Part shown: positions 15,294-51,361 of the stretch, piece after piece
How positions within the stretch are numbered: the stretch's first letter is position 1
How the letters are laid out: each line of letters opens with the position of its first letter
From: Marsupella aquatica
Taxonomy: Eukaryota > Plantae > Marchantiophyta
Length of the DNA stretch: 64,000 nt
NCBI GenBank assembly: GCA_973895155.1
Contig: OZ316891.1
Location: forward strand, 6,605,708-6,669,707
Direction of reading: 5' to 3'
Program-made: the position numbers and the translations under genes
Notes under the pieces: generated by a model
What the model was told of the DNA's origin: nothing
Seen by the model: only the letters and a program-made list of their open reading frames with translations
Databases searched by the model: none

Positions 15294-15584
15294 CTGGGGG
15301 GTTTCACTTCCATAGAATTGACACATCACGTACGACTAAGACTAAGGTAGTTTTGGGTTTTAAGAAAAGACTTGGAAATGTTTTCCGTGGAAGAACTTTA
15401 TGGTCTTTTAAACCCAATTTTGAGTTTTGTAAGAACATTAGGGTCCTTGTACTAATCAATGTTTTTTGGAATATTCCAATTCTATAGGGTTTTTTTTCAA
15501 ATAGATTTTTTCTTATATTTTCAGGGGTACACGGCTTAAAAACATCGCAGGTGATGGGGGCTTCTATGTAGTGAGACCCCCTTG
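15294..15584 (-). mobile_element. hAT-type MITE (~290 bp), same family as 17425-17721, opposite orientation
   Basis: Termini ctggggggtttcact...agtgagacccccttg. Degenerate 8-bp TSD aaccaagc/aaccaaat. The body is the reverse complement of 17425-17721. Confidence 0.75.
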
Positions 15585-15999: not shown

Positions 16000-16024
16000 T
16001 GACGGACCAAACGAGAAGTGTGAC
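16000..16024 (+). repeat. Left terminal inverted repeat of the large element
   Basis: Reverse complement of 35938-35962 with one mismatch; overlaps a hairpin aaacgagaagtgtg-ac-cacacttctcgttt. Confidence 0.85.
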
Positions 16025-16340
16025 CACACTTCTCGTTTTTCCCGCGGCTAAAAAAATTCTAAGGCAAAAAAGTGTTGGATACGGAATTAGTATTCCATGT
16101 AATAACCCAGATTTTAGATTTTTAAAACAGGAAAAAATGACTTGAATCCAAAGCAGGGATACGGCGTATCACATTTTGGATCCCACCGCAGTTTTCAAAA
16201 AAACAAAATCAACAAACGCAGTAAAAGGGGCGAGGACAGTTTACCCGTCAAGAATATTCCTAGAGGATTCCTTTTAACGGTCACTTTTAATCGACTACGA
16301 CAAAACTATGGTCAGAAACTGACCATGGTCAGGGGGAAAC

Positions 16341-16383
16341 TATAAATAGGAGAGCGACGACTCAAAATTTTTGGCTCATTTCT
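16341..16383 (+). promoter_or_regulatory. TATA box + initiator-like motif of cargo gene 1
   Basis: TATAAATA at 16341 and GCTCATTTCT at 16374, the same layout as at 18673/18704; followed by a GT-AG intron 16467-16851. Confidence 0.5.
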
Positions 16384-16498
16384 TCTTGCTCCCGCATTCG
16401 CTTGCTCCCGACGAATCCACAATCTGTATGCATATTCGTATCCCCCAAGTCAGACTACAAAAACAGGTGAGAAATATATATTTTTGAAAATCACGAGG

Positions 16499-16795
16499 AT
16501 GAATCCCAAATGGGATACGGCGTGTCCGGTTTGGGATTCAATCTTGAAAAATCCAGTCTTGGCATGACGAAACATGAGAAAAAGAGGTTGGATGCGAAGT
16601 GGGATATCCCACTTCGCATCCAACCTCTACATAAGAAGGTCTTGGTTGAAAAATGCAGGAAATTTGGAAGTTGAATGTGAAGTGGGATACCCGGTATCCC
16701 ATATGGTATTCAACCTCTGAATATCAATCAGGTTAGGTCCAAAAGGCGAAGTTTGAATGCTAAGTGGGATACGGCGTATCCCTTCGGATATTCAG
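16499..16795. repeat. Palindrome array 1 (4 copies, ~85-bp period) in intron 16467-16851
   Basis: Copies at ~16499, 16583 (perfect 46-bp palindrome agaggttggatgcgaagtgggat|atcccacttcgcatccaacctct), 16670 and 16752; a further single copy at ~16143. Confidence 0.85.
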
Positions 16796-17424
16796 CAATA
16801 GCTTTTTTGTGATGGCGAAAGATATCTTAAGTATTGGCGATTGTTTTGCAGGCTAGGTTCTTATCAACTTTGACAGAAGCTCTTGCTTCCTTCGAGCCCG
16901 CCATTTTGGAGTGACGAACTATTAAAGCTTTAGCTTTCGTTGAGACTAACATTTTCTCAAGTGAGTTCAATGACGGTCCAGATTCAAAACCGAGATAAAC
17001 GTGCTCATCGATTGTATAAGAGATTAGTTGAACTCAAAGTGCTTCCTACTGGATTAGGAGCGATTTGGATGGGAGGCGTAGATCCTCAAGATAGTCTCAA
17101 TCCGCTCCGAATTGAGTTTTGCAGAAAGAATGAGCAAGGAGTTCCGATTCGGTCAAGAATTTTTTGAACGGTTGTCTGCATTCTGTTGATTCTTCGTGTA
17201 ATTATTGTCGTGATGATGAAAACAAGTATCATCGATTGGCATACTTGTGTTGTCGAATTTGGAACGAAGATCCTTGGGTTAACTCTTCCCATTGAATCTA
17301 CTTGATTCTAGGGTCACAAATATTTGGAGTTTTGTTCAGTATTCTTGGCTCTCAAATATTTAGACATGATGTTTTTCTTTTGATCAAAGAAATAAAGTAA
17401 TTGTTTTGATCCCTGTTTTGTAGG

Positions 17425-17721
17425 CTCGGGGGTCTCACTATATGGGGACCTCCCCATCGCCTGCGACGTTTTTAGGGCTCGGACCCCCTAAAATGTAAGA
17501 AAAAAAAATTATTTTTTAACCCCTATAAAGTTGGAATATTCTTGGAATATTCTAAAAATTGGATTAAAAAGGCCCTAATGTTCTTATAAGTCTCAAAATT
17601 GAATTTAAAAGACCCTATTGTTCTTCTACAAAAATTCTTAAGTCTTCCCTTAGAACCAATAAAATGACCCTATCCTTCGTCGCACGTGATATGCCATTTT
17701 TGTGGAAGTGAAACCCCCGAG
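17425..17721 (+). mobile_element. hAT-type MITE (297 bp) nested in the large element
   Basis: TIR ctcgggggtctcact / agtgaaacccccgag; perfect 8-bp TSD TTTGTAGG at 17417-17424 and 17722-17729. Confidence 0.9.
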
Positions 17722-17803
17722 TTTGTAGGTTCTTCAAACAGAGAACTTCTCCATTTTCTCTATCACTCAAGGTATTCCTTTTTTCGTGTCAAATTGGTTT
17801 GGA

Positions 17804-18347
17804 ATGGCCGTCCCTCAAAACCTTGTCTTTGCAAGGTTAGCGACCATATTTGAGAACGAGAAGAAGAAACAAATTGAGCAGAAACGGAGCCGAAGGGAAT
17901 CCGGACTACTTTTGGATGGACTTCCTGATGAGATTGTTGAAACGTTCATATGGCCTATTTTGAAAGTTTCTTGCATCGAGGACGAATTTGATTCTTCCAA
18001 GATCTCGGCTGAAGAAAGACTCAGCCGATTAAAAGAAATGGTTTGGCTGGGATCCTCCTCAAAAAAAATGGAACCAGCTTGTAGTTTGTACACGAGTATG
18101 GGGTCTCCTTCGACTAGCACGAAGCCAGTTTGAGGGATTAAATGAATTGCTTGATAGCGTTCCCCATGGAGACCCACTTCAGAATGTTCATCTCGCAAAC
18201 TTTTTTAGGATGGAAACTTTGAATCTTCCCCCAATCGATTTCCTTGGTTTGTTTTCGACATCAGAACTAAGTCAATTTCAAGGGGACTGGCTAAATCTAG
18301 AGAAAGATCAACAAGCCAAACTAGTGGAAATATATGGACAAACTTGA
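17804..18347 (+). pseudogene. F-box-like cargo protein, frameshifted at the A-run ~18061
   Basis: LLDGLPDEIVETFIWPIL resembles the F-box consensus (LxxLPxEIxxxI). The reading continues in another frame after the oligo-A tract (ORF 18147-18347). Confidence 0.5.
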
Positions 18348-18672
18348 TTAATGTTCTATCATTCATGCTTAGGTGTGCTCATGGTGAGCTACTTGTAAAA
18401 ATGTTTTTCATGAATCAATATTTACTATCTTTTGTGGCACATCTTTGGACCAAACTCAGATTGTCAGCATTTTGCCCTGGCTGGCTTCCAGACCTTTAGT
18501 TTCTCGTTGCCAATAGCATCCAAATGAGGGTATCCCATATCGGATTACTCCACTATATTTTTCCGTAAAACATTCTTCAAACCCTAAACTGCATACTAGA
18601 TTAGCCGCGACTATTTCAAGCGACTATTTCGAGGAACTAACTGCCTTGTTACGTAGTGGACCCAGGAGAAAG

Positions 18673-18713
18673 TATAAATAAGAGTGCCTCCCCCAAAAGT
18701 TACGCTCATTTCT
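18673..18713 (+). promoter_or_regulatory. TATA box + initiator-like motif of the methyltransferase-Ulp1 gene
   Basis: TATAAATA at 18673 and GCTCATTTCT at 18704; a splice acceptor ttttgcgcAG at 19317-19318 sits just before the ATG at 19320. Confidence 0.5.
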
Positions 18714-18839
18714 CATCTCTCACGCCGCCTCTCACTCTTTCCAAATACCCATTCTCCATAGATATTTGTATTCCCTCGGCAGACACTCCATCACCAATTG
18801 AGAATACAATCTCCACGATATTTTCATACAAACTGGGAG

Positions 18840-19241
18840 GATGAATCCGAAGTGGGATACCGCGTATCCCACTTCGCATTCACTTTGGCCGAATTCTTGT
18901 TTGAGAAGAAAAATGCAATGAGATGTCGGGGATGAATATGAAGTGGAATACCGCGTATCCCACTTCGCATTCAACATGCAAATCTTCAAAGTTATTGAAA
19001 TCCTCAGCGCAACTAAGGGGATGAATCCAAAGTGGGATACACAGTATCCCACTTCGGATTCATCTCCAAGATTTCATGCTTTCTTAATGAATAGCCAGAA
19101 TAGGGGCGGTTCGATACGAAGTGGGATACCGTGTATCCCACTTCGCATTCATCCCCAAGAATTCATACTTTTTATATGAAAGAGCCGGAATAGGATGTGT
19201 TGGATACAAAGTGGGATACCGCGTATCCCATCTCGCATTCA
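18840..19241. repeat. Palindrome array 2 (5 copies, ~90-bp period) in the 5' leader/intron of the methyltransferase gene
   Basis: Consensus gatgaatccgaagtgggatac-cgc-gtatcccacttcgcattca at ~18840, 18931, 19020, 19109 and 19199. Confidence 0.9.
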
Positions 19242-20679
19242 CATATTGGATTATGGACTTGTTGCTCAAGTGGACCATATTAGGCTTGAAATTCTAACAT
19301 GTGGTTTGTTTTGCGCAGGATGTCGAACAAGTCAAGTGCTTTGGGTTCCTCTGGCTCTTCCCGACAAGCCATCATTGATGAAATCTGGAAAAAGGATCTC
19401 TATGTTGAGGAGAAATTCCTCAAGAACAAGTGGTATTTGTGTGATGCTCGTGAGCTTGATCTTCATCAAGCATATGCAGGCCCAGCATTATGGTTGATTG
19501 TCGTGAAGGGTAAAGAGCATTGCCACCAAGGATTGGTGATCGACACGGCCGAGTCGGACATCGTTGATACAAAAACCAAGAAAGTTAAGAGGGTACCAAT
19601 GTTTCTTTGCATTGGTGTTGATAAGACCTTCTCTGTGTTGGTTCTCAACTATGAGAAACTTGATCGAGTCTCCATGAATGCATTTCCGGAAGACCCGATC
19701 ACTCAGCTCGTGGCGGAGGCGCCTGATGTGGATGCATTTTTGTTTTGGTGCTTGAATTATGTCTTCACGTCGTGGAAGGTGGTGCGGGACTTCATCAACA
19801 TTGTGTATCGCTTAGTGGTTGGAGAAGACTTTAAGGGTCCCGAAAGAACTCCATTGAAGTTGAAGATACATAGGCCAACTAATCCGTCTGGGACAGTGGA
19901 GGGTTCGGAGACAACCACAACAAAAGAGCAGGCAGTTTCCGAGCCAAAGAACAAGAAGAAAGCACTAGCAACATCTGTTGGAAAATCTGGGGAAGGATCA
20001 GGTGCCACTATCTCCGAAGATCCTCTGAAAAAGAAGACTAAGTTGGATCGACGAGAAATCCAAAAGAGAGTAGTGTCAATAGCTCCCCCTTCGCCTTTGA
20101 GATCGGTAGATGAGATTCCTCCAACTTCACAAGGTGGGCCATCCGTTGCATCGAAGGGGAAGGGTCCGATGATTCCAGGGGTTGGGAAAACATTGAAGAA
20201 GCACGAACCAATTTTCCAGATATTATTTAGATCAGGAAAAGTTTGGGACCTCCAAGACCAGATCTTTGACATGTGGAACAGATTTGAGATCAAGGGGCAG
20301 ACCAAACAAAAATCCCCTGTGAAGATAGTGAAGAAAGGGTCCAAGTTAAAGGCCGTGCCCGTCGTGAAACCTTTGAACAAGCTAGCAAATGGGCTAGCAT
20401 TGACACCTTGGAGAGCGATCCAAGGGATTGAGCACGACCGGTTTTTGGAATCCCTTCTCCTTCAAGTCAAGGATCGAATGATCAGTCTAGAGCAAATGGC
20501 CAAAGAGGCCGAAAGTTACAAGAAGCTTGTGAAGATCAGTAAACTATTTGTGCAATTGTCTGGCCAACCAGACTAGGCAACTTGTAAACAGATGTTTCCC
20601 AAAGAGACGCAGTCTGCGGAGCTCGAAAGATGGAGTGGAAAACTCTTGGATGTGGTAAGTTGATTTTGTGTTTTCAAAG

Positions 20680-21078
20680 GTTGAATTCAAAACTGGATAC
20701 GCGTATCCCATTTGGGATTCACAATCGATTCTGGCTCCATTCAAGTTGTTTCTTTCTTTTTGTCTGGGTGGAATCCGAAATGGGATACGGGGTATCCCAT
20801 TTCGGATTCGACCCCAGGTTTTGGCTGTGTTAGCGTTGTTCCTTTGATTTTCCCTAGGTGGAATCCGAAATGGGATACCCCGTATCCCGTTTGGCATTCA
20901 ACCCCGGGTTTTGGCTGTGTATGCGTTGTTCCTTTGAGTTTCCCTAGGTGGAATCCCAAATGGGATACCCCGTATCCCATTCGGGATTCAAGTTGGAGTT
21001 TGAGGGTTAGAAGCATGATTCACCAGATTTATTTAGTCGAATACCGAATGGGAGACTCGGTATCCCTCTTGGTATTCA
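20680..21078. repeat. Palindrome array 3 (5 copies, ~90-bp period) in intron 20656-21111
   Basis: g(t/g)gaatcc(g/c)aaatgggatac-nnn-gtatcccatttcggattc at ~20680, 20768, 20858, 20948 and 21036. Confidence 0.9.
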
Positions 21079-21329
21079 GTGCATTAACTCTGGTGCCTTG
21101 ATGTTTTATAGTTGAAAGCCTTCTCGAAGAAGAAGAACAAAATGGTTCAAGTGTCAAATGATGGCGAGGAGACTGTTGAGGAGGAGCTTAGTTCCGATGT
21201 TATCCCCCTTGGTTTTAAGAATATGGTTCAGGAAGCTATTGAGAATTATAATCGTCGGATTGGTATCGATACTGTTCAAGCGGAATCAAGCGACCACCGT
21301 TGGAAAAATTCTGATGGAAATTTCATCAA

Positions 21330-22020
21330 CTACACTCTCCACTGTGGAGATGTCCGGGCGCTTGATAGGTTCTTGGAGAAACGGCCTTACACACTTGCAG
21401 TCGCCGACATTCCTTATGGATTCAATGCCATCGGCTCTGAGAATGATGAAGTTCCATTTTCAGAGAAAGATATTATTGATACATGGTGAAATGTTTTGCT
21501 AAGGTGACTACTTCACCTATGTGGAGGTTTGTTGTTATTCATTCGCTGCAACAAAGTGTCTCCGTTTTGAATGCTTTGGGAAAGACTTGCAACGCTGGAG
21601 TTGAGGCAGGAATTTGGGAGAAGCCAAATGTACATGCACACCCCTCCGGGAATAGGCTAGCTTGGGCGTTTGAGAACTGGTCCATTGGATATTATAATGA
21701 AGGTGGTATCAGGACCAGGGAAATGTACAATTTCGAGCATGATGAAAAAAGAATCAACATCATCAAGGTTCCTTGTGTTACCAAAAAATGTGTAACACCC
21801 TTAGGGGAAGTAGTGAATCCGTATCAGAAGCCGATAGCCCTCACAGACTGGTTCATCAAGCATTTTAGTGAAGAAGGAGATTGGATTGTTGATTTATGCG
21901 CTGAAAGTGGGTCCACTTCGTGTGCGGCTTTGTTGGCAAAGCGACATGTTACAGCTTTGGAGTTGAGTGCTCAACAAATAGACTGTATCCAGACTCGACT
22001 AGTCACGCTGGATGAATCAT
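21330..22020 (+). CDS. DNA methyltransferase domain (N6_N4_Mtase fold, beta motif order)
   Basis: Catalytic motif IV DIPY (21406-21417) precedes the HPxQKP-like NPYQKP and SAM-binding motif I DLCA(G>E)SGST, followed by ALELSAQQIDCIQTRL. This order is typical of beta-class amino-MTases. Confidence 0.85.
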
Positions 22021-22348
22021 GGGACTTGAATGAGGAAGCAATTGAGGAGGGTACAGGGCCGATGAGTTTTGAGATACAACCACCGATTGGTGGTATGACA
22101 AGCACTCTCACCACCGGACCTTGCATCATTACAACCACGGCTGAGAATGATGATGATGTAGATGAAGACGAGGAGCAGGAGGAAGAGGAAGCAGAAGCTC
22201 CGGCATTAGATCTTGGCTCATTCCTCGAGGTGTCGAGATTATTTTGAGATTAGATTGCTGCAAATGAGATTTCCCCAAATTGTATATGAACTTCTGGAAA
22301 TATTCCAAGAGATTTAGATGTTCTTATGTGACAATAATGTCCTTGCAG

Positions 22349-23001
22349 GATCCACCAAAGGAGGTTATTGAATTGAAAAGTGTTCTTCATAGATTTTTGC
22401 ACAATCCTTTTGTTGGTCATCTCCTCAATCAAGAAACATTGGAACAACTTGAACCCGACCAATATTTGGGTGACGAAATTATGGAATTTTACCCAGAGTC
22501 CCAAACAGAAGAACAGGGAGATCTTGCTCCAATGGTAAACACGTTATCCTCCTTTTTTTATCCTTGGATGGCATCAAGGATTGAAAAAGAACCAACACAT
22601 GAATCCCTTAAAGAATCTTTACAGAAAATGCGAGGTTATTACAAGCCACCATTTTCCAAGATTGAGGTTATTCTTATGCCAATTCACATGAGTGGCCATT
22701 GGAGTTTGGTTGTCATATGTTTGGATCGATCTCAATCTTTGATCCAAATGTATCATCTAGACTCACTTGCTGGTCGATCTACATGAAACTCATGTAATTG
22801 AATCGGCACTGAAAAGGTGAAAGACTTAACTTTATCTTCTAGTACTATTTGTTTTTCAAATGAGATTATTTAATTCATGTGATTATAAATGCTACTTTAA
22901 CTAAGGAATCACTTTCAATGACTTGCAGATATTTCACAATAGAATGGGAACTATTTTTTGGAAAAGTGCCATTGGGTGTTATGGAGATGTGGAATCCAAA
23001 G
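22349..23001 (+). CDS. Ulp1 (C48) SUMO protease, N-terminal exons with catalytic His and Asp
   Basis: ETLEQLEPDQYLGDEIMEFY; ILMPIHMSGHWSLVVICL; MYHLDSL. Confidence 0.8.
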
Positions 23002-24219
23002 GTATGTAATTTGTTTCATTTTTAATTCTTTTTATCTCTCTATTCATTAAAACTAGAAAATTCTTTGATCTTTGGACATTTGGGCACTAAAATACATATT
23101 TTTGGGCACAAGAATTGTACATTTGGGTAGTGAAAGTTGTACATTTGGGCACCATTTAATGTACATTTGGGGAATCAAGATTGTACCTTGGGGAAAAATA
23201 AATATTAATTTGGATTCTAAAGAAAAACATTTGGGTGATAGAAATATAAAATGTGTTGGATAATAAATAAAACATTCATCTAGTCTAATAATTAAGATAT
23301 AAGCTTGGATATGATCTCTACCCTAATCTTATGCTTTGATCATTAATAGGGTTCTAAATTCATGTTATTCTAGTTGCTTGGAACTCTCCACACTAAAAGC
23401 AATTCTACACAAGAATCCAATATCAAATTACTCAAGAATCCAATATCAAATTACTCAAGAATCCATCAAGAACAATTTTACTAGAGCCTTCATAATAGGC
23501 CACACAAGAATCCAATATCAAATTACTCAAGAATCCATCAAGAACAAGTTTAAACTGAGACTCTAGATGAATTCAGAAGTGCATAAACCCCCTATGCAGT
23601 CATTTTCTACACATCAAATATGGAAAGAAATGCATGTACAATGCTTCACATGAGAACTATCTAGTTAAACATGTGGGAGAAAGAATAACAATGGGATGGG
23701 CGACCTCTCACTTGAAGCTATGCACCAAATTTGGCGCTCCAAATTTTGCTAGTTTCCATATACTCCTCATGTAGTGTTGGCCATCAACGTCAATAGTAGT
23801 GGGTGCAGCAGCTAAACCAAATATTTGGAGCTCCACATTGTGCTAGTTTTTAAAATAATATAACTGTCACTATTGCTGGCCAAAATTGCACCATCCCCAA
23901 GGCAACCTTAACTCCAAAACTGCACCATCCTAGAGGCAACCTTAACTCTCCATCAATGACCAACAAACCTCTTTTCCTCACAAAAGTACCTACCCAAAGA
24001 GACAACAGTTGTTGGCTCTAGATGATCTTGAGGTAAAATAGTGATCCTCAATAACCAAGGAAATCATTCTAAAGATTCTCAACTATCACTAAACCCTTAC
24101 ACAAATGTAAAATAAGTTGTTAGCTATAGTTGATCTTGAAGGAAAATTGAGACTTGTAATTGCCTCAAAAAATCATTATATAGCAATTTCTCAAAAATCA
24201 TCAAGAGACCTCAATTAAT

Positions 24220-25665
24220 GAAAAGCTTACACAATTGTTGGCTCTTGATGATCTTGAGGTAAAATCAAGGCCCCTAAATTTCCAAGGAAACTGCTCTAAA
24301 GATGCTTCACTATCAAGAAATATATATCCAAAGCTTACACAATTGTTGGCTCTAGATGATCTCGAGGTAAAATAAAGGCCTCTAAGCTTCCAAGGAAACG
24401 GTTGTGAAGATGCTTCACTATCAAGAAATACGTATGTGTGGGAGAAGGAATAGCAATGGGATGGATGAACTCTCACTTGAAGCTATGCACCAAATTTGGA
24501 GCTCCAAATCTTCCTAGTTTCCATATACTCCTTACGTAGTGTTGGCCATCAACATCGATACTAGTGGGTGCAGTGGCTGGACAAAATATTTGGGGCTCTA
24601 CGGCTCCACGTCTCGCTAGTTTTCAAATACAACTATCACTATCACTAGCCAAAATTGCACCATCCCAAAGGCAACGTCAACTCCAAAATTGCACCATCCC
24701 AGAGGCAACCTTAACTCTCCATCAATGACCAACGAACCTCTTCTCCTCACAAAAGTACCTACCCAAAGAGACAACAATTGTTGGCTCTAGATGATCTTGA
24801 GGTAATAGTGATCCTCAATAACCAAGGAAATCATTCTAAAGATTCTCAACTATCACTAAACCCTTATACAAATGTAAAATAAGTTGTTAGCTATAGTTGA
24901 TCTTGAGGGAAAATTGAGACTTGTAATTGCCTCAAAAAATCATTGTAGCAATTTCTAATCATCAAGAGACCCAATGAAAAGCTTACACAATTGTTGGCTC
25001 TAGATGATCTCGAGGTAAAATCAAGGCCCCTAAATTTCCAAGGAAACTGCTCTGAAGATGCTTCACTATCAAGAAATACGTATCCAAAGCTTACACAATT
25101 GTTGGCTCTAGATGATCTCAAGGTAAAATAACGGTCTCTAAACTTCCAAGGAAACGGTTGTGAAGATGCTTCACTGTAAAAAAATACGTATCCAAAGCTT
25201 ACACAATTGTTGGCTCTAGATGATCTCGCGCAAGGCAAAATGAAGGCCCCTAAACTTCCAAGGAAACCAATGTAAAGATGTTTCACTATCAAGAAATATG
25301 TATCCAAAGCTTACACAATTGTTGGCTCTAGATGATCTCGAGCCTGTAACACATGGGCCTCTAACTTGAAAGAAAACCGTTGTGAAGATGCTTCACTATC
25401 AAAAAATATGTATCCAAAGCTTACACAATTGTTGGCTCTAGATGATCTTGAGGCAAAATAAAGGTCCCTAAGCTTCCAAGGAAACCGCTGTGAAGATGCT
25501 TCACTGTCAAGAAATATGTATCCAAAGCTTACACAATTGTTGGCTCTAGATGATCTCAAAGTAAAATGGGGACTCTAACTACCACAAAGATCACTACGAA
25601 TGCATCCCTCACCCTAAACAAACCCTCGCCAAAGCTACAATAAACTCTTGGCTCTAGATTATCTA
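24220..25665 (+). repeat. ~105-115-bp tandem repeat with core aagcttacacaattgttggctctagatgatctcgag
   Basis: Units at ~24224, 24331, 24980, 25087, 25195, 25307, 25417 and 25525. Confidence 0.85.
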
Positions 25666-26414
25666 GCTAGAGATAAACTAGATAATTGCTATAGAAATTG
25701 GTAGGGTTATGGGTTTAGGGTTTTCTGCCCCCAAAACCTGGCCTGATCTATCCTTAACCAAAGCTCAGACCAATAGAAATATTAGCAAGGAGGAGCTCAA
25801 GAGACTTGGAGAGAGGGAGAGCGAGAGGAAGAGCAAGAGGAACAGAGAACAACATGACAACAAAAATGAAACTAGTAAAATGATCCTCGCAACTGGGAAC
25901 AAAGGATTATATGCCACCGACTGACTCACGAGAGGGCCCAACAATCTGCGTACGGATTTGTGTACGGATTGCTTTAACTGCACACCAAGGGCATACGGGT
26001 TGCATTAAATGCTTTATCATACCTGACACACTTATGCCTCTCTCATACTTGTATCTACCTAGTGTTGCCTTTGGACATGACATACGGTGCGTTGAGGAGA
26101 TTTGAATTCCGATCATTTGCATTTTTATCTTTCCTCTTTCTTGCAAGAGCTCCTCCCTTCTTGCTCTTGCTTTGAGATCTTGGTTGTAGCCTCTAGATCT
26201 TAGTTTTAGCTTGGGTCGAGATCTATGTGCTAGCCTCAAGATCTTAGTTTTAGCTTGGGTTGAGATCTGTGGGCTAGCCTCGAGATCAATATGGTAGCCA
26301 CATGGTTTTAGTGCTAGACTATAGGGTCAAGATCGGAGTCGAATCAGTTGTCACCACTCATGATCGACCACGTGTCATCCATCAATTGCTTGTTGCGATG
26401 TCCACTCGGAGCAC

Positions 26415-29400
26415 TAGGAGACTCTAGATCATCTTGAGCTTCTTGTCTTGACTTTGGTTTTATAGTGTAGAATATTGAAGCACTTGGAGGCTCTAGATCG
26501 AGCCTCTTGCATGTCTTCATTTTGGTTTAAGAGTGCAAAAATTGAAGCGCTTGGAGGCTCTAGATCATCTCGAGCCTCTTGTCTTGACTTTGGTTTCATA
26601 GGGTAGAAAATTGAAGTGCTCGAAGACTCTAGATCATCTCAAGCCTCTTGTCTTGACTTTGCTTTTATAATGTAGAAAATTGTAGCACTTGGAGGCTCTA
26701 GATCACCTTCAGCCTCTTGTTCTGCCTTTTATTTTAGAGTGCAGAAAATTAAAGTGCTCGGAGGCTCTAGATCATCTCAAGCCTATTGTCTTGACTTTGG
26801 TTTTAGAGTCCAAAAACTTCAAGCGCTCGGAGGCTCTAGATCATCTCGAGCCTCTTGTCTTGACTTTGGTTTTAGAGTGCACAAAATTGAAGTGCTTGGA
26901 GGCTCTCTAGATCATCTTGAGCCTCTTGTCCTTAGTTTGGTTTTACAATGTAGAAAATTTCTTGGAGGCTCTAGATCATCTCGAGCCTCTTGTCCTTAGT
27001 TTTGTTTTACAGTGTAGAAAACTTCTTGGAGGCTCTAGATCATCTCGAGCCTCTTGTCCTAACTTTGGTTTTAGGGTGCAAAAAATTGAAGCGCTTGGAG
27101 GCCCTAGATCATCTCGAGCCTCTTGTCCTTAGTTTTGTTTTACAGCGTAGAAAACTTCTTGGAGGCCTCTAGATCATCTCGAGCCTCTTGTCCTAACTTT
27201 GATTTTAGGGTGCAAAAAATTGAAACGCTTGGAGGCTCTAGATCATCTCGAGCCTCTTGTCTTGACTTTGGTTTTAGAGTGCACAAAATTGAAGCGCTTG
27301 GAGGCTCTCTAGATCATCTCAAGCTTCTTGTCCTTAGTTTTGTTTTACAATGCAGAAAACTTCTTGGAGGCTCTAGAACATCTCGAGCCTCTTGTCCTTA
27401 GTTTTGTTTTACAGTGTAGAAAACTTCTTGGAGGCTCTAGATCATCTCGAGCCTCTTGTCCTAACTTTGGTTTTAGGGTGCAGAAAATTGAATCGCTCGG
27501 AGGCTCTAGATCATCTCGAGCCTCTTGTCCTTAGTTTGGTTTTATAGTGTAGAAAACTTCTTGGACGCTCTAGATCATCTCGAGCCTCTTGTCCTGACTT
27601 TGGGTTTAGGGTGCAGAAAATTGAAGCGCTCAGAGGCTCTAGATCATCTTGAGCCTCTTGTCCTGACTTTGGTTTATAGTGTAGAAAATTTCTTGGAGGC
27701 TCAGATCATCTCGAGCCTCTTGTCCTTAGTTTGGTTTTCTAGTGTAGAAAACTTCTTGGAGGCTCTAGATCATCTCGAGCCTCTTGTCCTGACTTTGGTT
27801 TTAGAGTGCAAAAAGTTGAAGCGCTCGGAGGCTCTAGATCATCTTGAGCCTTTTGTCCTTAGTTTTGTTTTACAATGTTGAAAACTGCGTGGAGACTCAA
27901 GATCATCTTAAGCCTCTTGTCTTGACTTTGGTTTTAGAGTGCAGAAAATTGAAGCCCTCATAGGCTCTAGATCATCTCGAGCCTCTTGTCTCGACTTTGG
28001 TTTTAGAGTGCAGAAAATTAAACTGCTCTGAGGCTCTAGATCATCTCGAGCCTCTTGTCCTGCCTTTGGTTTGAAAGTGCACAAAATTAAAATGCTTGGA
28101 GTCTCTAGATCATCTCGAGACTCTTGTCCTGACTTTAGTTTTAGAGTGCAGACAATTAAAGTCCTCGGAGGATCTAGATCATCTTGAGCCTCTTGTCTTG
28201 ACTTTGGTTTTAGAGTCCAAAAACTTCAAGCGCTCGGAGTCTCTAGATCATCTCAAGCCTCTTGTGCTGACTTTGGTTTTAGAGTGCACAAAATTGAAGC
28301 GCTTTTAGATGCAGCCTGTGGGAGGGAGCCTGTGGGAGTGGCGCAGCTTTTTGTCTTGCACCAGATTCTCTGGAGGCTCTGGATTGGGAGAAACACTCAC
28401 ATGTTTCAGACGGGGGGGGGAGACGTGTGTTTGACCTGGGACTTGTCCTGTCGGAGGCAGTGGAGAACTTATTCGCTACTGGTCGGCGTTGCCCCCATGG
28501 TAGGAGGTGCACTCGCCTGCTATGGGCCAAATCATGTATTGATGGGCTTTGCAGGAGCTGGCTCGATGGTGGGGGGACCAGTTTCACTTCCGCTGGATGA
28601 CTCTGATTTTTCTGTGAGGTTGGAACGTTGAGACCAATGAATGTATGGTTCTGGGGGCAGGGATGCCCTATGGCTGGTTATTAGGTTGTGTGGTCGTCCT
28701 CTTTTGCTGTTAGGTATCGCCGGGGAGGTTAATTCCTTGCCTGATGTGGGATTAAGGTGATTTTTTGAGGTTTGGTCCTCTGTTCTGTCTTGGCTGTCTC
28801 CCGTGAATATGATCTGTTTGTGCGCCCTCCCCGTGGGGCTTTTCGCAGGGGAACTGAAATTTATAAAATGGCTACCATTCCAAGGAAAATTGAAGTGCTT
28901 GGAGGCTCTCTAGATCATCTCGAGCCTCTTGTCCTTAGTTTGGTTTTACAGTGTAGAAAACTTCTGGGAGGCTCTAGATCATCTCGAGCCTCTTGGCCTG
29001 ACTTTGGTTTTAGAGTGCAAAAAATTGAAGCGCTTGGAGGCTCTAGATCATCTGAAACCTCTTGTCCTAACTTTGGTTTTAGAGTGCAAAAAATTGAAGC
29101 GCTCGAAGGCTCTAGATCATCTCAAGCCTTTTATCTTGACTTTGGTTTTAGAGTGTAGAAAATTAAAGCGTTTGGAGGTTCTAGATCATCTCGAGCCTCT
29201 TGTCCTGCCTTTGGTTTTAGACTGCACAAAATTAAAGCGCTTGGACCGAGGCTCTAGATCATCTTGAGCCTCTTGTCTTGACTTTAGTGTGAGAGTGCAT
29301 AAAATTGAAGCGATTGGAGGCTCTAGATTGTATAAAGCCTCTTGTCTTGACTTCTGTTTTAGAGTGCAAAAAATTGAAATAGTCTAAGGCTCTAGATCAT

Positions 29401-29760
29401 CTCGAGTCTCTTGTCTTGACTTCTGTTTTAGAGTCCAAAAACTTCAAGTGCTCGGAGGCTCTAGATAGTCTCGAGACTCTTAGCTTGTCCTGACTTTGGT
29501 TTTAGACTGTGGAAATTGAAGCGCCTGAAGGCTCTTGATCATCTCAAGCCTCTTGTCCTAACTTTGGTTTTAGAGTGCTGAAAATTGAAAGCGCTTGGAG
29601 GCTCTAGCTCATCTCGAGCTTCTTGTCTTTGACTTTGGTTTTAGAGTGCAAAAAATTGAAGTGCATGGAGGCTCTAGATCATCTCGAGCCTCTTGTCCTT
29701 ACTCTGATTTTAGAGTCCTGAAAACTATTAGCACTTGGAGGCTATCGATCATCTGGAGTC
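26415..29760 (+). repeat. ~62-bp satellite (~40+ copies) with hairpin core ggaggctctagatcatctcgagcctc
   Basis: The unit ggaggctctagatcatctcgagcctcttgtc(c/t)tgactttggttttagagtgcaaaaaattgaagcgctt repeats throughout, interrupted at 28305-28885. Confidence 0.9.
28305..28885 (+). mobile_element. 5'-truncated L1-type LINE 3' end inserted in the satellite
   Basis: QILWRLWIGRNTHMF matches the L1 ORF2 C-terminal WxxWxxRNxxxF motif, followed by a 3'UTR-like stretch. Flanked by aaaattgaag(c/t)gctt direct repeats (candidate TSD). Confidence 0.65.
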
Positions 29761-30571
29761 CAAAAGATTCAAAGGGGTTTTGCTTTAGGTCTTTTGTGGA
29801 GCCAAGTTATTATGATAATTGTTGTACCTGTCCTATAAGTTCTGGAATATAGTGTCGTAGGTGGTGTGCAACCGAGGTATGAAATTTGATTTTTCAAGGT
29901 CTGGACTTGCTTGCTCAAATGATTTCTACCAACTAAGAGAGTCATGAGTGTAATATTTAGTCAAAGATAAACCCTCCATTTGGGTCTAGACTATCTCAAC
30001 CATCTAAGTATGATAAATATAAGTTCTTACATAGATAGGAGATTAGGGTGGTTGCAATCTCTACCCTTAATTAATAAGGACAAATGACCATTCATCACTT
30101 GCTACCCTTGACAGTCAAACTACCATATTTACTAGTGTTACTTAGGGTAGAGACGATTGACTAAACTGATATAGTGATTCATGTATTTTCAATAATTTTA
30201 ATTTAATATATTGTATATAGATTGTTATATTCTATTCATTGATATGCTTTTTTAGACTATATAATAATAATGATACTATATAGTATAATAATATAACTTT
30301 CTATTATATGAATATTAATTAATTATAAATTACTATTTAGTTATTTAATAATTTAGGTACAAGAAGTGTAATTTTAGACCACAAAAAGTGTACATTTGGC
30401 CTACCAAATATATACTTTTGGGGCAAATTTTGTGAAATTTTGGGTAGCAAAATAATACTTTTGAGCATCAACTTTTGGACTCTAGAAATTCCAGTTTTAA
30501 TGAATAGAGTGATTTTTGGGTTCAAAAACATATCTATAAATTGTACTAAAATACACCATGTTTTTTATCAG

Positions 30572-30772
30572 GTGCCACAACAACCAAATACCACAGATTG
30601 TGGTTTATTTGTCCTGCACAACATGGATGAAATTAGAGTTCGATGGAATAATTCAAAATCTGTATCCGCAGAGTCTTTATTTACAAGAGATTGGTACAAC
30701 CCCACACAAGCATGTCATCTGCGAAAGGTGATCAGAGATAGAGTTATGAAATTAATGCATGTATCAGCCTAG
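30572..30772 (+). CDS. Ulp1 protease terminal exon (oxyanion Gln and catalytic Cys)
   Basis: Acceptor ttttttatcAG then VPQQPNTTDCGLFVLHNM; phase 0, matching the donor at 23002. Confidence 0.85.
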   Translation: MPQQPNTTDCGLFVLHNMDEIRVRWNNSKSVSAESLFTRDWYNPTQACHLRKVIRDRVMKLMHVSA

Positions 30773-30791
30773 TTTAATTAGTAAATGAAAC

Positions 30792-33700
30792 TCAATCTTC
30801 TGAAGATACAGAACCTCGCTCTAAAATAGCAGCCTCTATGATCTTCTTTATTTTTGCTGCTATTTGGTTATTTGTCAAAAGTGCAAAATTGTATGCATAT
30901 ATCGCTATTGACGACAAAACTAGTTCATCTTGATGAAGTCTATTAGATACATTATCTTTTTCTGGAAAATATTTTCCATCAATTGCAGTCTCAGCACTTG
31001 CCTCAGTTGTGTACCACGTGATTTTGATTCTTTTCGGAATGTCTTCTCTTTTTGTCAAAATCTTTTCGACACCTTTGCCATCCAAAATAACTTGCCTTCT
31101 GGATCTTTGTGTGCTGCTACGCATATCATTGACCATTTGTTGTTCACTTCCATATCTTTGAAATCCCCAAGTTCAGGTTGCTTTCGCCGAGGACCTGAGT
31201 ACATAATCCTCTGTGGTCCTGCAACTTTATCAACTAGAGTTGGGTCAACATCTTCGGACGTCAAAATCTGATTTGTTGACACACCACCAAGTCCACGCCT
31301 TTCATTTTGTTGTGGCCAAACCCATTCAAATAACCACTCACCCTCCTCTAAGTGGTTTTTGATAACATCATTTTGCTTCTCAAAGAATGTCATCCACCAT
31401 AGTTTATCTTCATCGTCAAAGTAATTGAATCCCTCTTGAATTGCTTTTTGATATTTCACCAGAATGGATAATGCACCATTTGAGTCCATCAGATCATCAT
31501 CTCGTTCAACACCTTTTGCTGACTTTAGTGACATCTGTGCTGCAACCCACATTCTTGAAGTGGGGATGTAGTTGACAAATGCTACCACGTCTCCCCAATC
31601 AGAGGTTGTAGATAGATGTTTCCCATGAAACATGGTCACTTCGTTATCATCTACAATGCCTCGCTTGAATCTGAATTGCCTTTGAAAAGTTATGAGGTTG
31701 AGATCTCTCAAAACTCGACCTGAAACTCCGTTGTCATTTGGTTGGTCGGTCTCATTCACAAATTTTCTGAAGTCTGCAACTTCATCCACAAAAATTACAT
31801 CTGCTTGAGGAGAATATGCCCATTGTATAATATCCACAAGAGTATCTAAGCGAAATGCTTTATGCTTGTTTAATCTAGATGAGAACTTGCTAAACATCTT
31901 ATCTATTTGGTCATGCGTATGACCAACCAACAAAAAACCAACTTTTATCTTGTCAAAAACCTTTAAATCTACCAACATGTGTAGATAAGCCATCAAGAAT
32001 TTATTCTTGTTCTCCCTAGTGGTATTATCCAATTGAAGATATAATACCCGTGGCAATATCCCATCCCATGTATTCAAAATATTTTGAATAACATGAATGG
32101 TGAGATAATTTGCATCATTGTGGATGTTGGGGTAGGTCAGAAAAACTTTTGCCGCAAGCTTTCTATTAAAGATAAGACAACCCACAACATGGATAGGGAT
32201 GAAATATTTCTCATCCATGTTCTTTGGACAACGAATAAAATGTGGTAGCTCAGTTTTCTTTTGATCCATACTGTCAATACAAATACCCAAATACTTGTTG
32301 GGTTCATCATAGCATTTCTTTCGATGCTTTGCCAACTTCATCCTCTCGAGTGATTGTACTCTTCAATGCTCCATAAGAGCGTTGATATACTTTCCTGCAA
32401 TAATACAATCATGTGTAATCAATAAATTATCTATTCATCATTGTGTCTAACTTATCACTATCTTACTTAGACACAAATGTGAGGTTACAATGAACTTACT
32501 TTTATCTTCTTCTGTCGTTGCTTTGTCTCGAAGAGCCTTGAATTCGGTACATGGACCACAAGTGGAAAAACAACTCCTTTTGGGAATCCGCACATTTGAA
32601 AACTTCTTCTTCCAAACGCGCAAGAAATAAGAATATGTAACATATTGCTCTTCCCGCAAGATTGTTTCGGCAAGAAAGATTTCATGAATCTCTTGCTTTG
32701 TCCAATTGTTTGGCAAGTGATGAATTTCTTTATGAGGAAGACTATCCATGTTTCTTTGAAAGAAATCTTTCAACCATTCCACCAAGTTGAGAAATGAAGG
32801 TGAGTCTTCCTTACAGAATGTATCTCGTTCAATCCTGGTGAACATGTTTGCATGGATTGTAGCCAACCTATTATTCCCTATGGAATATAATTTCTTGAAA
32901 CCTCCTCTACAAATAGTTTGTCCATTCACACTATATCCACGGGAAGTATTATAATTACTCATAATACATCCTCGCAAAAGAATGTTTTTTTGTGAGTGTG
33001 AGAGACCAAAATAATACTTACGTTGTTTCCAACATTCTTCTAGACCTAAAGACCTCAAGCAAAACTTGTCACAACAAGAATACTTAAAAATATCTTTAAT
33101 TTTTTGTTTTTTCAAGTTCGCATTGATAAGCCTATCTTTTCGAATCATCTGGTCTCTAATTTTTTTGCTTGGTCTTCTCACCTCTATTCTATCTTGTATT
33201 GTGTTGGGAGAATTCACTCCTCCACTAGTTTCCATGGGACTCATTGAACTTAAAACAAAAGTATCTTGATTTTCTCCGGTATTAGTTTCACTCTCTACAT
33301 TTTCTAAGACTGGTTCGTGAGCACTCTCGCGACCAAGGATCTCTTTAACAATATTTGAGATTTCAACAGTCCCTATGGCATCCTCTACGACATCGGCTGG
33401 TACCTCCGATTCTTCTTCAGATTCTTCTGGAAAAGCAATTGGTACCCGAAGATTTCTTGTCTGAAATCTTCTACCGATATTCCTTGCTTCTATCGGAGTA
33501 TCCCCCACTTGTCTCTGAAAGTGTGATCCTTGCCTTGGTGTCTCATCTCGACTAGAGGGATCATCCTGACCATTGAATAGTCTTTGAACAACCTTCAATT
33601 TTCCTTCTAGCCTTGAATTTTCGGGGCAAGTTTGTGGCAACGCACTTTGCAACAATCTGTGAGGCATTTGATGGACACCTGCAGCATTTGTGACACTTGA

Positions 33701-34885
33701 TCTCCTTCCTCCCTTTTGAAATGGTCGTCCTACCAAAGATCCAGCAACCTCACACTGCATTCGAGCCAAAGGGCTTCGAAGCCCAAAGTTGATGTTTGAT
33801 TGACCACTAGGCGAAATCACCGATGGGAACACGGAATGGGATCCATGGATCCCAACTCGTATTCGTCCACTTGGACTTCGAAGTGACAGCTGCCCCACTT
33901 GTGGTTCTATGGTAGCGCTTGACAATTGACCATTGTGTAAAACAAAGTGGGATCCACGGATCCCCTGTCTCATTCCTCCACCCAAAGCGACTAACAAAGT
34001 TTGTCCGCTTTGCAATTCGGGCTCAACATTTGGTAAAATTCCAGGAGGGGATACCAAGTGGGATCCGCGGATCCCCTTCCGCATTCCTCTCCCCGAATCA
34101 GCAGGCAATGGTTTTTCGCTTCGCATTTCGGGCTCACCATTTGGTAAAATTCTAGGAGGGGATACCAAGTGGGATCCACGGATCCCATTTTGCATTCCTC
34201 CCACCAAATCAGTAGGCGAAGGTTGCCCGATTTGCAATTCTGGCTCGCCATTTGGCAAAATTCCAGGAGGGAATACCAAATGGGATCCACGGATCCCACT
34301 TGGTATTCCACTAATGGCATTTGGTAGCGAAGGAGATGAAATTGGCAATTCACGCTCTCCATTCCGCAAACTTCGAGTAGGGATCCCTCTGGGTATTCTT
34401 CGTGCGGCTGGCACTTCTAGCACCGTCGAACTTCTCATTCGCTCAAACTGCGATTGCACACTAGACAAAGCTATCTGGACTCCAGGAGGACGCGACATTG
34501 GGAAAACCAGAGGAGATCTCTTGGCGGGCCTACATAGCAACATTGTTCTTGGCATTATAAACCGAGGCCGACGCTTGGGTACATCTGGAGGGGTTCACGG
34601 TGAACTAGTCTGACCTAAGGGTATGACAGTGGACTTTCTCCCAAGCAAACGTCGTTTAAGCGGTTTGCTTGGAGAAACATAATAAGGTGTTGGAGCTCCA
34701 ACAACACTTCTCCCACACTCGGAATCAGGCCCTGAACTCTCTGAATCTGATGAAAATGACATCTCTGGCAAAACTCTTTGTGAGACTGGAAGCTCCTTCA
34801 TCAAACGAGATGGAATGAATTTTTGAACAACATCTGGCGAAGATGCATCAGAACTATAAATAGACTCGTCACCTGAAGATGCCAT
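30792..34885 (-). pseudogene. Sola-like (DUF7869-type) DDD transposase of the large element, with stops and frameshifts
   Basis: ATG at 34885, frame break ~34590, long ORF to the donor at 32499, intron 32499-32395, TGA at 32365-32363, ORF 32341-31055, frameshifted tail to 30792. Motifs SCCDKFCL, ICRGGF, WKKKFSNVRIPK, FSTCGPC, ICIDSMDQKK, YLQLDNTTRENKN, FLLVGHTHDQIDKMFS. Superfamily assignment is from recalled motifs. Confidence 0.8.
33825..34310. repeat. Palindrome array 4 (type B, GGGATCC-RY-GGATCCC), 5 copies at a 111-bp period, translated as 37-aa repeats in the transposase N-terminus
   Basis: Cores at ~33838, 33949, 34060, 34170 and 34282; protein repeat GI(R/H)GSH(L/F/S)VxPPGILPNxEPExxxxx. 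Confidence 0.85.
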
Positions 34886-35009
34886 TGAGATAGTATCAAG
34901 GTTCTATAGGAGTAAGGATTCCTATGGGGAGTGGACCGTTCCAGTGACTCCAATCTAGGAAAATAGAGACTCAATATTTGAGAACCTAAAATGAGTCATA
35001 AAAAATGAA

Positions 35010-35041
35010 GACGGAATCACATGCGAGCTTGTTCTTATATA
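35010..35041 (-). promoter_or_regulatory. Candidate TATA box of the transposase gene
   Basis: Minus-strand TATATAAG at 35041-35034, with tcattt ~30 nt downstream and the ATG at 34885. Confidence 0.4.
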
Positions 35042-35164
35042 GTTTTTGGGAAGATGTCCACGTGGCTTCCATTCATTGGTCCGTACAAATTTTTAAATGT
35101 GAACAAAATTGATCTTTGAGAGAAAAGAGTATTCCAAAATTGTTTGTTTCTTGAGTTGGATCGG

Positions 35165-35360
35165 ACAATGGGATCCATGGATCCCGATTGGTATTCAAAC
35201 ATTGATTTAGCAACGCGGGGGTTTGACAAGGGCAAATTTGGAAGGGTGAATACCAAATGGGATCCGTGGATCCCATTTCGTATTCACCCCGACTTTTGGC
35301 TTAGCTCTTTTTGGACTTGGGAAATAAAATGGGATCCATGGATCCCTGTTGGTATTCATA
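35165..35360. repeat. Palindrome array 5 (type B, 3 copies) upstream of the transposase; a single type-A copy follows at ~35590-35632
   Basis: gggatccatggatccc (35170), gaataccaaatgggatccgtggatcccatttcgtattc (35248) and gggatccatggatccc (35331). Confidence 0.85.
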
Positions 35361-35937
35361 TCTCTAATTTGTTAGATGGAGGGTGGCGGTTGGGAAATAA
35401 ATGGTCTACAGTATGTCCAACCATCTGCTTGGGTTAACTTAACTGACTGCATTTGTCGACCATGGTTGCTAGTAAAGTTTATACAGTACGTCGTTTTACC
35501 TTTGGTAAATATTCAAATCTAGTTTACTCGGTATGGTAACTTAAGGCCCCAAATGATCAACTTAGTGTGTTTTTGTTTGATTTTCCACGGATGAATCTGA
35601 AACGGGATACGGCGTATCCCATTTTGGTTTGAATGATTTGCTTGTCAAATGGAGATTTGTGTTATTGAAGCTTTTCCGGGCGAATTGATTAAGCGCGCGG
35701 AAATAGGACTTGAAAATCATTGTTTTATGGGTTTTGTGTTTGACAAATATTTTTGGGATCAATTGTTCTAAAATCAAAGATTTTAATGATTTTCCATTTT
35801 TTGTCAAAAAGTATCTCAATTTGGAATCGGATGTTGGATCCAATTTTGCATTCATCTAAGAATTTGTGTTTTTGATATCAATTTAAGATATTTTTTGCCG
35901 TTTTTTGCAAAAATCAAAACACACTTCTCGTTTGGTC

Positions 35938-35962
35938 GTCACACTTCTCGTTTGGTCGGTCA
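35938..35962 (-). repeat. Right terminal inverted repeat of the large element
   Basis: gtcacacttctcgtttggtcggtca, preceded by a tandem partial copy at 35920-35937. Confidence 0.85.
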
Positions 35963-38900: not shown

Positions 38901-38982
38901 ATCATTTGCCAGTGTAACGCTTACCCCAACCAAAACAATGGAGAAGCGCAGCTGTTGAGGTTTATCTGAAGGCTGAGTAGGC

Positions 38983-47451: not shown

Positions 47452-47454
47452 TTT

Positions 47455-50827: not shown

Positions 50828-51361
50828 CTAAGCATCGTAACCACCGCTTCCGCGGCTATCCTGCCTCCAGCTCTTGTCACCATATCCTCCTCCGCCACCG
50901 CCTCCACCGCGGCTTCCTCCATATCCTCCTCCGTAGCCACCTCCTCCTCGGCCGCCAGTGCGTTCACCGCCGTAGCCACCACCGCCTCCTCCGTATGGAC
51001 GGCCTCCTCCCTCTCTGCTTTGGTATCCACCACCGCTTCCATAGCTACCACCGCCGCCGCCGCCTCCACTGCGAAACCCTCCCCCTCCGCCTCCACCGCT
51101 TCGAGACTGAGCCTGGTTGACCGTGATGTTTCGGCCATCGAGCTCCTTGCCATTCATGGCTTCGATGGCGTCCTTCATGGACTGCTCCTTCAAGAAGGTC
51201 ACAAAGCCGAATCCACGCGACCGGCCGGTATCCCGATCGTTGATGATCTTCGACTCCGTCACCTCGCCGAACTGCCTGAAGGCGTCCTCGAGGCTGTCAT
51301 CGTTGGTGGCCCAAGCAAGCCCTCCAACGAAGCACCTATACTCTTCAACTGCCGCCGCCAT
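50828..51361 (-). CDS. GRP: Glycine-rich RNA-binding protein (RRM + Gly-rich tail, GRP7/GRP8-like), 177 aa
   Basis: MAAAVEEYRCFVGGLAW (RNP2), RSRGFGFVTF (RNP1), NGKELDGRNITVNQAQSR, then GGGY repeats. TATATAA at ~51713-51707. Confidence 0.95.
   Translation of the reverse strand: MAAAVEEYRCFVGGLAWATNDDSLEDAFRQFGEVTESKIINDRDTGRSRGFGFVTFLKEQSMKDAIEAMNGKELDGRNITVNQAQSRSGGGGGGGFRSGGGGGGGSYGSGGGYQSREGGGRPYGGGGGGYGGERTGGRGGGGYGGGYGGSRGGGGGGGGYGDKSWRQDSRGSGGYDA

Follow-up and report, generated by a model that had tools for sequence, protein, structure and literature searches.

A damaged Sola1-like transposon in Marsupella aquatica with a ParB-like DNA methyltransferase gene and family-specific palindrome arrays

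Positions 6,605,708 to 6,669,707 of contig OZ316891.1 in the Marsupella aquatica (Marchantiophyta) assembly GCA_973895155.1 form a stretch of 64,000 nucleotides, hereafter the window, with positions counted from its first letter. Within it, an element bounded by terminal inverted repeats (TIRs) carries a transposase gene, a DNA amino-methyltransferase (MTase) gene and arrays of one family of palindromes, which raises the question of what a transposon does with a DNA-modifying enzyme and with so many copies of one motif. A first reading of the letters alone (the sequence-only reading) regarded the element as a possible undescribed system that marks its own arrays and, with a SUMO protease of the Ulp1 type and an F-box protein, acts on host silencing factors. 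Here, the element was compared with its other copies, with related loci and with published systems. The comparison points to a smaller conserved unit, in which the palindromes are likely read by a ParB-like part fused to the MTase.

The element, its conserved core and its palindromes

The element is real: the TIRs, the transposase, the amino-MTase, the Ulp1 protease and the palindromes are all present, and it is best explained as one damaged member of a Sola1-like cut-and-paste transposon family with many copies. The TIRs of about 25 bp that had been said to enclose the genes are confirmed, with 24 of 25 bp identical between left and right and an 18-mer confined to the two element ends. The span from TIR to TIR is 19,963 bp, or about 12.6 kb net after removal of nested DNA. 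Among the genes claimed to lie inside, three match Pfam families above the cut-off, namely the transposase on the minus strand (DUF7869, PF25273, E 4e-44) and, on the plus strand, the MTase (N6_N4_Mtase, PF01555, E 9e-7) and Ulp1 (Peptidase_C48, PF02902, E 4e-11 and 2e-5). The F-box identity of the fourth gene did not stand, since three pieces of this frameshifted gene gave no match to F-box families at E up to 10 and the likeness of its LPDEIV stretch was seen by eye only. All four genes are broken in the window copy.

Six public runs of three organisms contain part of the left 7.3 kb of the element, and the best four of them (two studies; one run possibly from the source sample) were used. 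This read evidence covers the left part, with contigs so short that no single wholly intact copy is demonstrable. On a 2.35-kb MTase stretch, 338, 249, 828 and 520 contigs were placed in the four runs, most of them less than 99% identical. Tryptophan stands at the site of the window's premature stop in most of the depth of all four runs, the window's 2-nt frameshift is absent from contigs in three of the four, and a glycine-containing S-adenosylmethionine (SAM) motif occurs in one contig each of runs X3 and X4. Other copies in two organisms are thus free of several lesions of the window copy, indicating that less damaged copies exist.

A metagenome scan gave eight related loci (L001 to L006 among them), seven from one assembly. 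In all four loci that extend far enough (L002, L004, L005 and L006), the 3' end of a transposase gene lies tail-to-tail with the MTase gene, 317-470 bp past the MTase stop. Independently, Riccia sorocarpa genes R1sor_010796 (ParB-like part plus MTase) and R1sor_010795 (DUF7869) are probably neighbours, to judge from their consecutive tags and the identical length of their contigs, and in the window the MTase gene lies inside the TIRs on the strand opposite the transposase. The relatives' loci therefore support the claim that the element itself encodes an amino-MTase, whose gene accompanies that of the transposase. None of the eight loci matches Ulp1 or the F-box-like gene, and the gap of 317-470 bp has no room for Ulp1, so these two genes drop out of the conserved toolkit to which they had been assigned. 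Because the MTase and the transposase are paired in relatives without Ulp1 or F-box, the conserved core, as far as these sequences tell, is the transposase, the MTase gene and the arrays. Contigs of other copies continue from the MTase end into Ulp1, which places Ulp1 in the window lineage, and we propose that this lineage acquired both Ulp1 and the F-box-like gene at a later stage.

The acidic residues of the transposase are conserved in the motifs DxMD, QLDN and GHTHxxID, which we take to be Sola1/2-like. The transposase had no sequence match in the PDB and no Atlas match outside DUF7869, no MULE family was matched in the element by Pfam, and a literature search for DUF7869 found no paper. 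Zisupton had been considered because Ulp1 and F-box genes are among its features; this identity was ruled out by the DUF7869 assignment. The termini, GAC(C/G)G-CGGTC, resemble the AACCG-CGGTT of Sola1-1_Ec32, a Sola1 element of Ectocarpus. No perfect target-site duplication (TSD) flanks this single old copy, the best being 4/5 with ends 16001/35961 or 3/4 with ends offset by one base. CAC..GTG ends of the CACTA/Chapaev/Transib type at 15995/35967 were ruled out by three mismatches and no TSD. In a transposase tree from which 8 of 42 candidates were dropped for want of the core pattern and L002 was left out, the window and L006 share one starred clade and the Riccia neighbour falls in another, with an unresolved backbone. 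A second, distant and decayed DUF7869 transposase lies at 58861-62020 on the minus strand (CpG observed/expected 0.27); its element, whose ends were not found, lacks the palindromes of the present family and, in the part seen, also an MTase. An unannotated open reading frame (ORF) with cysteine pairs lies nearby at 63430-63978.

With a pattern allowing up to three mismatches, 23 palindromes were found inside the element and none in the 44 kb outside, and 30 dinucleotide shuffles of the element had a mean of 0.13 and a maximum of 2. The pattern was derived from these same copies, so the shuffles rule out chance and are not evidence of function. A spacer-less perfect 46-bp palindrome at 16583-16628 is a possible 24th, in agreement with the earlier estimate of about 24 copies and none outside the TIRs. 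The window palindromes are of type A (n = 14, N7 spacer), type B (n = 8, N6) and a short variant (n = 1). Their placement at 5' ends and in introns holds for leaders, introns and upstream DNA, except that 5 of the 23 lie in frame within the transposase coding region. The relatives carry 41 copies with the core GAGCGAKAC-NN-GTMTCGCTC in L001-L004 and L006, and L005 carries 20 with the core CCGAT-CCAAAC-ATCGG, the centre of which is not self-complementary. A skeleton of GAAT-N9-GAK-N6(7)-MTC-N9-ATTC is common to these families, with the outer GAAT/ATTC one-sided in L005. Relative to the genes, the palindromes of the relatives lie in matching places; leaders, introns and the intergenic gap are all occupied. 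The palindrome motif is translated in frame in the N-terminus of the window transposase, and pattern matching finds its equivalent in 5 of 7 homologous exons. The relatives' palindrome was absent from the viral contigs searched. The arrays are thus conserved, family-specific and confined to the element, in support of the sequence-only reading. Arms of one copy pair no better with each other than with those of other copies in three of four sets (p = 0.10, 0.96 and 0.98; 0.03 in the fourth), which, together with the non-self-complementary centre in L005, favours a dyad read by a protein over a hairpin; a hairpin function was accordingly set aside.

A ParB-like part ahead of a predicted adenine methyltransferase

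The relatives have an additional exon of predicted ParB/Noc/KorB fold ahead of the MTase, which the sequence-only reading had overlooked. The model of the L005 exon (pLDDT, a per-residue model confidence, 84.6) has a predicted ParB N-domain followed by a helical helix-turn-helix (HTH) DNA-binding domain. All 10 of its Foldseek matches at E <= 0.001 are Noc or ParB, and its VIA-align comparisons gave Z 10.7 for PadC (root-mean-square deviation 2.9, 100 residues aligned), Z 9.7 for KorB, Z 5.4 for the KorB DNA-binding domain and Z 4-5.4 for ParB DNA-binding domains. The HTH_ParB profile matched 5 of 30 members, below the cut-off. The ParB-like part and the MTase form one protein in Chara, Ginkgo and Riccia and lie in consecutive exons in L001 and L003-L005. 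Judging from the modelled fold, the ParB-like part is likely the reader of the palindromes. The window copy keeps this exon from residue 205 of 365 onward, the N-domain and the first HTH helices being gone. Correspondingly, 21 of 23 homologous ParB exons align to the window from 20166-20202 and none upstream; one contig in run X4 has a different sequence up to the junction, consistent with a deletion in the lineage of the window copy. As a lead only, the ParB-like exon at L005:1864-2994 had an Atlas likeness of 0.96 to fungal DUF3723 and of 0.90 to phage ParB_N, with a recognition score below threshold. DUF3723, a family of Starship cargo, may on this lead be ParB-like; a literature search found no paper combining DUF3723 and ParB.

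In the MTase, the catalytic DIPY precedes the SAM motif DLCxGxG, an order that defines the beta class. CcrM was the top match of the fold search (E 4e-13), with CcrM, PvuII and HpyAVI as the leading fold matches of a model of pLDDT 57. In profile comparison, enzymes making N6-methyladenine (6mA; HpyAVI 3e-14, MboIIA 2e-12) ranked ahead of those making N4-methylcytosine (4mC; N4CMT 6e-5, PvuII 2e-3). In all 36 proteins that have both motifs, of 162 examined, the first residue of motif IV is D, and S occurs there in none. The 12 close homologs, at 59-62% identity, all have intact D(I/V)PY and SAM motifs. These sequence features suggest that the MTase of intact copies is likely active and makes 6mA rather than 4mC, for which GAT-N6-ATC is a candidate target. 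Orthology to Marchantia DN4MT1 was ruled out by the catalytic motif (D-x-P-Y versus SPPY).

The MTase family comprises 498 representatives at E 0.001; among the 7 of 20 clusters that were looked up, the named relatives belong to Chara, Ginkgo, Riccia and Adiantum. Members with the ParB-MTase architecture are annotated as hypothetical in Chara braunii (P0033, P0040, P0050), Ginkgo (P0042), Ceratopteris (P0321) and Adiantum (P0046, P0323, P0339); these plant proteins are probably unrecognised transposon cargo. No MTase relatives were found among 57 candidate stretches in viral contigs or 32 in prokaryote genomes, and a phage ParB-MTase ancestor is not shown, phage matches spanning the MTase domain only. 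The MTase tree, with 34 of 162 proteins and almost no prokaryotic rows, gives no donor.

Possible roles of the arrays and the enzyme

Taking these data together, our judgement leans, by a little, towards a reading in which the ParB-MTase binds its own palindrome arrays and methylates the element, probably on adenine, marking the element and aiding its expression against silencing. By analogy with ParB at parS, a ParB-MTase dimer quite probably reads the palindrome dyad. The enzyme would act in cis on the element that encodes it and in trans on silent copies, methylating both. Spreading from the arrays like a ParB clamp is conceivable and rather doubtful, and for an anti-silencing outcome, drawn from the analogy with VANC proteins of Arabidopsis VANDAL elements, we see an even chance. 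The window copy could act only as a passive target, because its ParB N-domain is lost.

Several observations weigh against this reading. The likeness to ParB is distant, with 12-19% identity and TM-scores of 0.2-0.35, and sulfiredoxin and kinases that share the fold also reach Z 7-8 in VIA-align. The window copy lacks residues 1-204 of the 365 in the model, a loss that may be private or common to many copies. Caulobacter ParB needs an arginine pair, R103/R104, for CTP binding (PMC8367383), and the nucleotide motif of the ParB part reads GGNH, GGGH or GGSH without such a pair, with a conserved arginine upstream (xRP/xRE). With this motif, CTP-driven sliding may or may not take place; its positions are presumably equivalent to those of the Caulobacter pair. 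In addition, motif IV reads DIPY or DVPY rather than DPPY, and within the N6_N4 family the product changes between 6mA and 4mC (PMC8885841). Seven of the eight loci count as one source, and the MTases of Chara, Ginkgo and Adiantum have no adjacent transposase tag among the matches listed. The tree does not place the MTase-linked transposases in a single resolved clade, and a single capture of the MTase is not shown, given the open tree backbone and the separate clade of the Riccia neighbour. CpG observed/expected is 0.6-1.0 in the element and 0.2-0.3 in its flanks, yet reaches 0.63 in an unrelated element without an MTase, so that CpG retention was rejected as a sign of protection by the MTase; the window's premature stop is, moreover, a change typical of CHG methylation. 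For these two reasons, protection from 5-methylcytosine (5mC) is not shown.

A more far-reaching version of the favoured reading, which we hold to be unlikely, is that plant transposons have adopted a complete partition-style device of bacteria. A ParB clamp would be loaded at arrays of co-evolving, parS-like sites, would slide along its own element and would lay down 6mA in a domain private to that element, keeping host 5mC silencing out, and the present lineage would have added a SUMO protease by splicing. If true, ParB loading and spreading driven by a nucleotide would for the first time be seen in a eukaryotic nucleus, and the device would amount to an epigenetic writer that is both programmable and specific to its family.

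The integrated toolkit of the sequence-only reading, in which one spliced MTase-Ulp1 protein and an F-box protein mark the arrays and remove SUMO or degrade silencing factors, is compatible with palindrome binding by the ParB-MTase and is itself improbable. The 119 nt between the MTase and Ulp1 ORFs fit a GT..AG intron of phase 0-0 that could link them, joining 22229 to 22349, and are hardly long enough to hold a promoter as well. In other copies, too, a diverged one among them, the MTase is followed by Ulp1, and the Ulp1 GHW, LDS, QQPN and DCG motifs (His-Asp-Cys with Gln) are all present in the frameshifted window gene. However, 12 of 12 close homologs stop where the window MTase ORF stops, most other copies have a stop at 22233-22235, 3 nt into the putative intron, the donor is weak, and Ulp1 and F-box genes are missing from the related loci. 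A single MTase-Ulp1 gene is therefore not shown.

Alternatively, the palindromes may be sites of the transposase, serving internal auto-activation or synapsis, with the ParB-MTase binding elsewhere or non-specifically. Arrays do occur close to each end of the element and within the gene for the transposase, and a 2026 preprint reports that transposases activate cognate copies sequence-specifically (10.64898/2026.08.24.746577). This explanation is made rather improbable by the element ends, which carry a repeated motif of their own unrelated to the palindrome in sequence, by the densest arrays, which flank the MTase exons, by the other DUF7869 element in the window, which has no palindromes, and by the partner gene, whose predicted fold is that of known palindrome binders.

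Methylation of the arrays by the ParB-MTase might also be a brake or timer, full methylation shutting the transposase promoter and the ends and hemimethylation after replication briefly opening them. Dam control of IS10/IS50 and repression by KorB are analogies for such a switch. Symmetric GAT-N6-ATC dyads would suit it, arrays lie on both promoters, and KorB, a long-range repressor, is among the best fold matches. The proposal is one by analogy, and the intron and leader arrays match the activating VANC pattern instead, for which reason we consider it quite improbable. Finally, the arrays could be hairpins or neutral products of tandem repetition, with the MTase as an inert passenger, which we consider very improbable. 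The arrays expand as 44-111-bp tandem units and the window copy is dead, but one skeleton persists over three unrelated cores, in families with proteins about 45-75% identical and even in frame in coding DNA, and the MTase motifs are intact in all 12 close homologs.

Structure of the locus and comparison with known systems

The features of the element are listed in Table 1. A block rich in tandem repeats occupies the last Ulp1 intron and is, from its sequence organization, likely a nested insertion; its 108-bp and 69/64-bp arrays have a common GGCTCTAGAT core, with 9 and 19 exact copies of two variants, and five of its ORFs gave no meaningful Pfam match and no coding family. The nested miniature inverted-repeat transposable element (MITE) belongs to a very abundant type of about 297 bp with ends CTCGGGGG..CCCCCGAG and an 8-bp TSD, a relative of which, 73% identical to the copy in the element, lies outside at 15294-15581.

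Table 1 Features of the element in window coordinates
Feature	Position	Strand	Remarks
Left TIR	16000-16024	+	Outer end possibly 16001; followed by an inverted partial TIR-motif copy up to 16038
Four type-A palindromes near left end	16155-16783		Core GGGATAC-N3-GTATCCC
Nested high-copy MITE, 297 bp	17425-17721		8-bp TSD; empty-site joint 17416-17722 in 4/4 runs
Small frameshifted gene with F-box-like stretch	17804-18347	+	Covered by diverged contigs in 4/4 runs
Five type-A palindromes, MTase leader	18853-19230		About 90-bp spacing; predicted intron, acceptor 19318
MTase gene, first exon	19320-20654	+	N-terminal region to about 20172 joined in frame to C-terminal part of ParB-like exon
Premature stop in first MTase-gene exon	20574-20576	+	Trp in most other copies
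Predicted MTase-gene intron	20655-21111	+	Five palindromes, about 90-bp spacing; same placement in L001-L005
Beta-class amino-MTase exon	21112-22247	+	Frameshift near 21481; altered SAM motif in window copy
Ulp1/C48 exons	22349-22816 and 22929-23001	+	First with His and Asp motifs, frameshift near 22780
Tandem-repeat-rich block, about 7 kb	about 23290-30340		In last Ulp1 intron; 108-bp and 69/64-bp arrays; edges approximate
Last Ulp1 exon	30572-30772	+	Gln and catalytic Cys motif; ends 20 bp from transposase stop
DUF7869 (Sola1-like) transposase	30792-34885	-	One intron near 32363-32480; in-frame stop 34595-34597; frameshift near 31055
Five type-B palindromes	33837-34299		Core GGGATCC-N2-GGATCCC; in-frame 111-bp repeats, transposase N-terminus
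Type-B palindromes (three, upstream of transposase start) and type-A palindrome (one, near right end)	35169-35621		
Right TIR	35938-35962	-	Second direct copy of TIR 18-mer at 35920

The window as a whole is eukaryotic DNA that is poor in CpG, contains introns and bears genes of plant type. A multi-exon host gene at 4150-10278 on the minus strand, with NB-ARC, DUF7779 and repeat-like exons, is an atypical gene of the NLR/STAND (nucleotide-binding, immune-receptor-like) kind. A non-coding element at 10424-13615 has TIRs of about 550 bp with 91% identity and AG..CT ends, is flanked by TTAA at either end, and is presumably Kolobok-like by the end rules of that group. A multi-exon gene at 38977-44892 on the plus strand has two similar FSxECxxYFDWQT repeats, with no Pfam match on three exons, and seems to us to resemble plant peptidyl-serine galactosyltransferase. 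An ORF at 46705-47496 on the minus strand, with a zinc motif, ADV and PLALE and no useful Pfam match, presumably resembles the endonuclease end of a retrotransposon without long terminal repeats. A gene for a glycine-rich protein with an RNA recognition motif lies at 50828-51544 on the minus strand.

The closest published system is Sola1-1_Ec32 of Ectocarpus, a 21.5-kb Sola1 element with a gene for a ParB-like plus N4/N6 DNA MTase protein (1104 aa) opposite the transposase, which was proposed to bind and modify the sequence of its own element (PMC12477816). The system is therefore not undescribed as far as the gene pair is concerned, the claim of novelty failing on the sequence-only reading's own terms. 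Within the literature searched, the gene pair is described only in that paper; the portions consulted of PMC4738411, PMC12730594 and PMC13297926 do not describe this system. Both elements are giant and of Sola1 or, here, Sola1-like type, with an opposite-strand ParB-MTase gene and similar termini, the proteins being compared by description. They differ in that the present host is a land plant, the TIRs are 25 bp here and 282 bp there, no clean 4-bp TSD was found here, and Ulp1, the F-box-like gene and the palindrome arrays are found here. Landing-site arrays were not found described, 'palindrom' occurring 0 times in the main text of PMC12477816; works cited there may mention land plants or target sites. 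What is added to the published gene pair is the land-plant lineage, the evidence for the ParB fold and, above all, the co-varying parS-like arrays. Self-modification by transposon-borne ParB-MTases is in print, in the text of that paper, only as a suggestion and without a target site. Three palindrome variants on a fixed skeleton predict cognate versus non-cognate binding and make this suggestion directly testable. The present element extends the system to land plants, which have strong 5mC silencing, and could explain where localized 6mA in plant genomes comes from.

With bacterial ParB/parS, Noc/NBS and KorB, the family shares a predicted ParB N-domain and a helical DNA-binding domain (PMC8367383), and repeated palindromic cores of 16-17 bp are candidate loading sites as in ParB/parS. 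It differs from ParB/parS in the fusion to an MTase, GGNH in place of the arginine-rich CTP motif, a 38-39-bp dyad with outer GAAT/ATTC and no ParA. Marchantia DN4MT1 and bdelloid N4CMT are likewise prokaryote-type beta-class amino-MTases in eukaryotes (bioRxiv 2021.02.12.428880, PMC8885841), but these are host genes with SPPY that make 4mC, whereas the present family has D-x-P-Y and a ParB part and is transposon-borne. With VANDAL/VANC, the element shares family-specific tandem motifs in introns, leaders and terminal non-coding DNA and an element-encoded reader, here a candidate one, so that the earlier analogy for array placement holds (PMC5735166). VANDAL elements, however, are MuDR and not Sola, VANC motifs are non-palindromic and of 8-9 nt, and VANC causes loss of 5mC, whereas the ParB-MTase would add a mark (PMC5735166). 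The element would represent, beside VANC, a second sequence-specific anti-silencing design, one that adds a mark.

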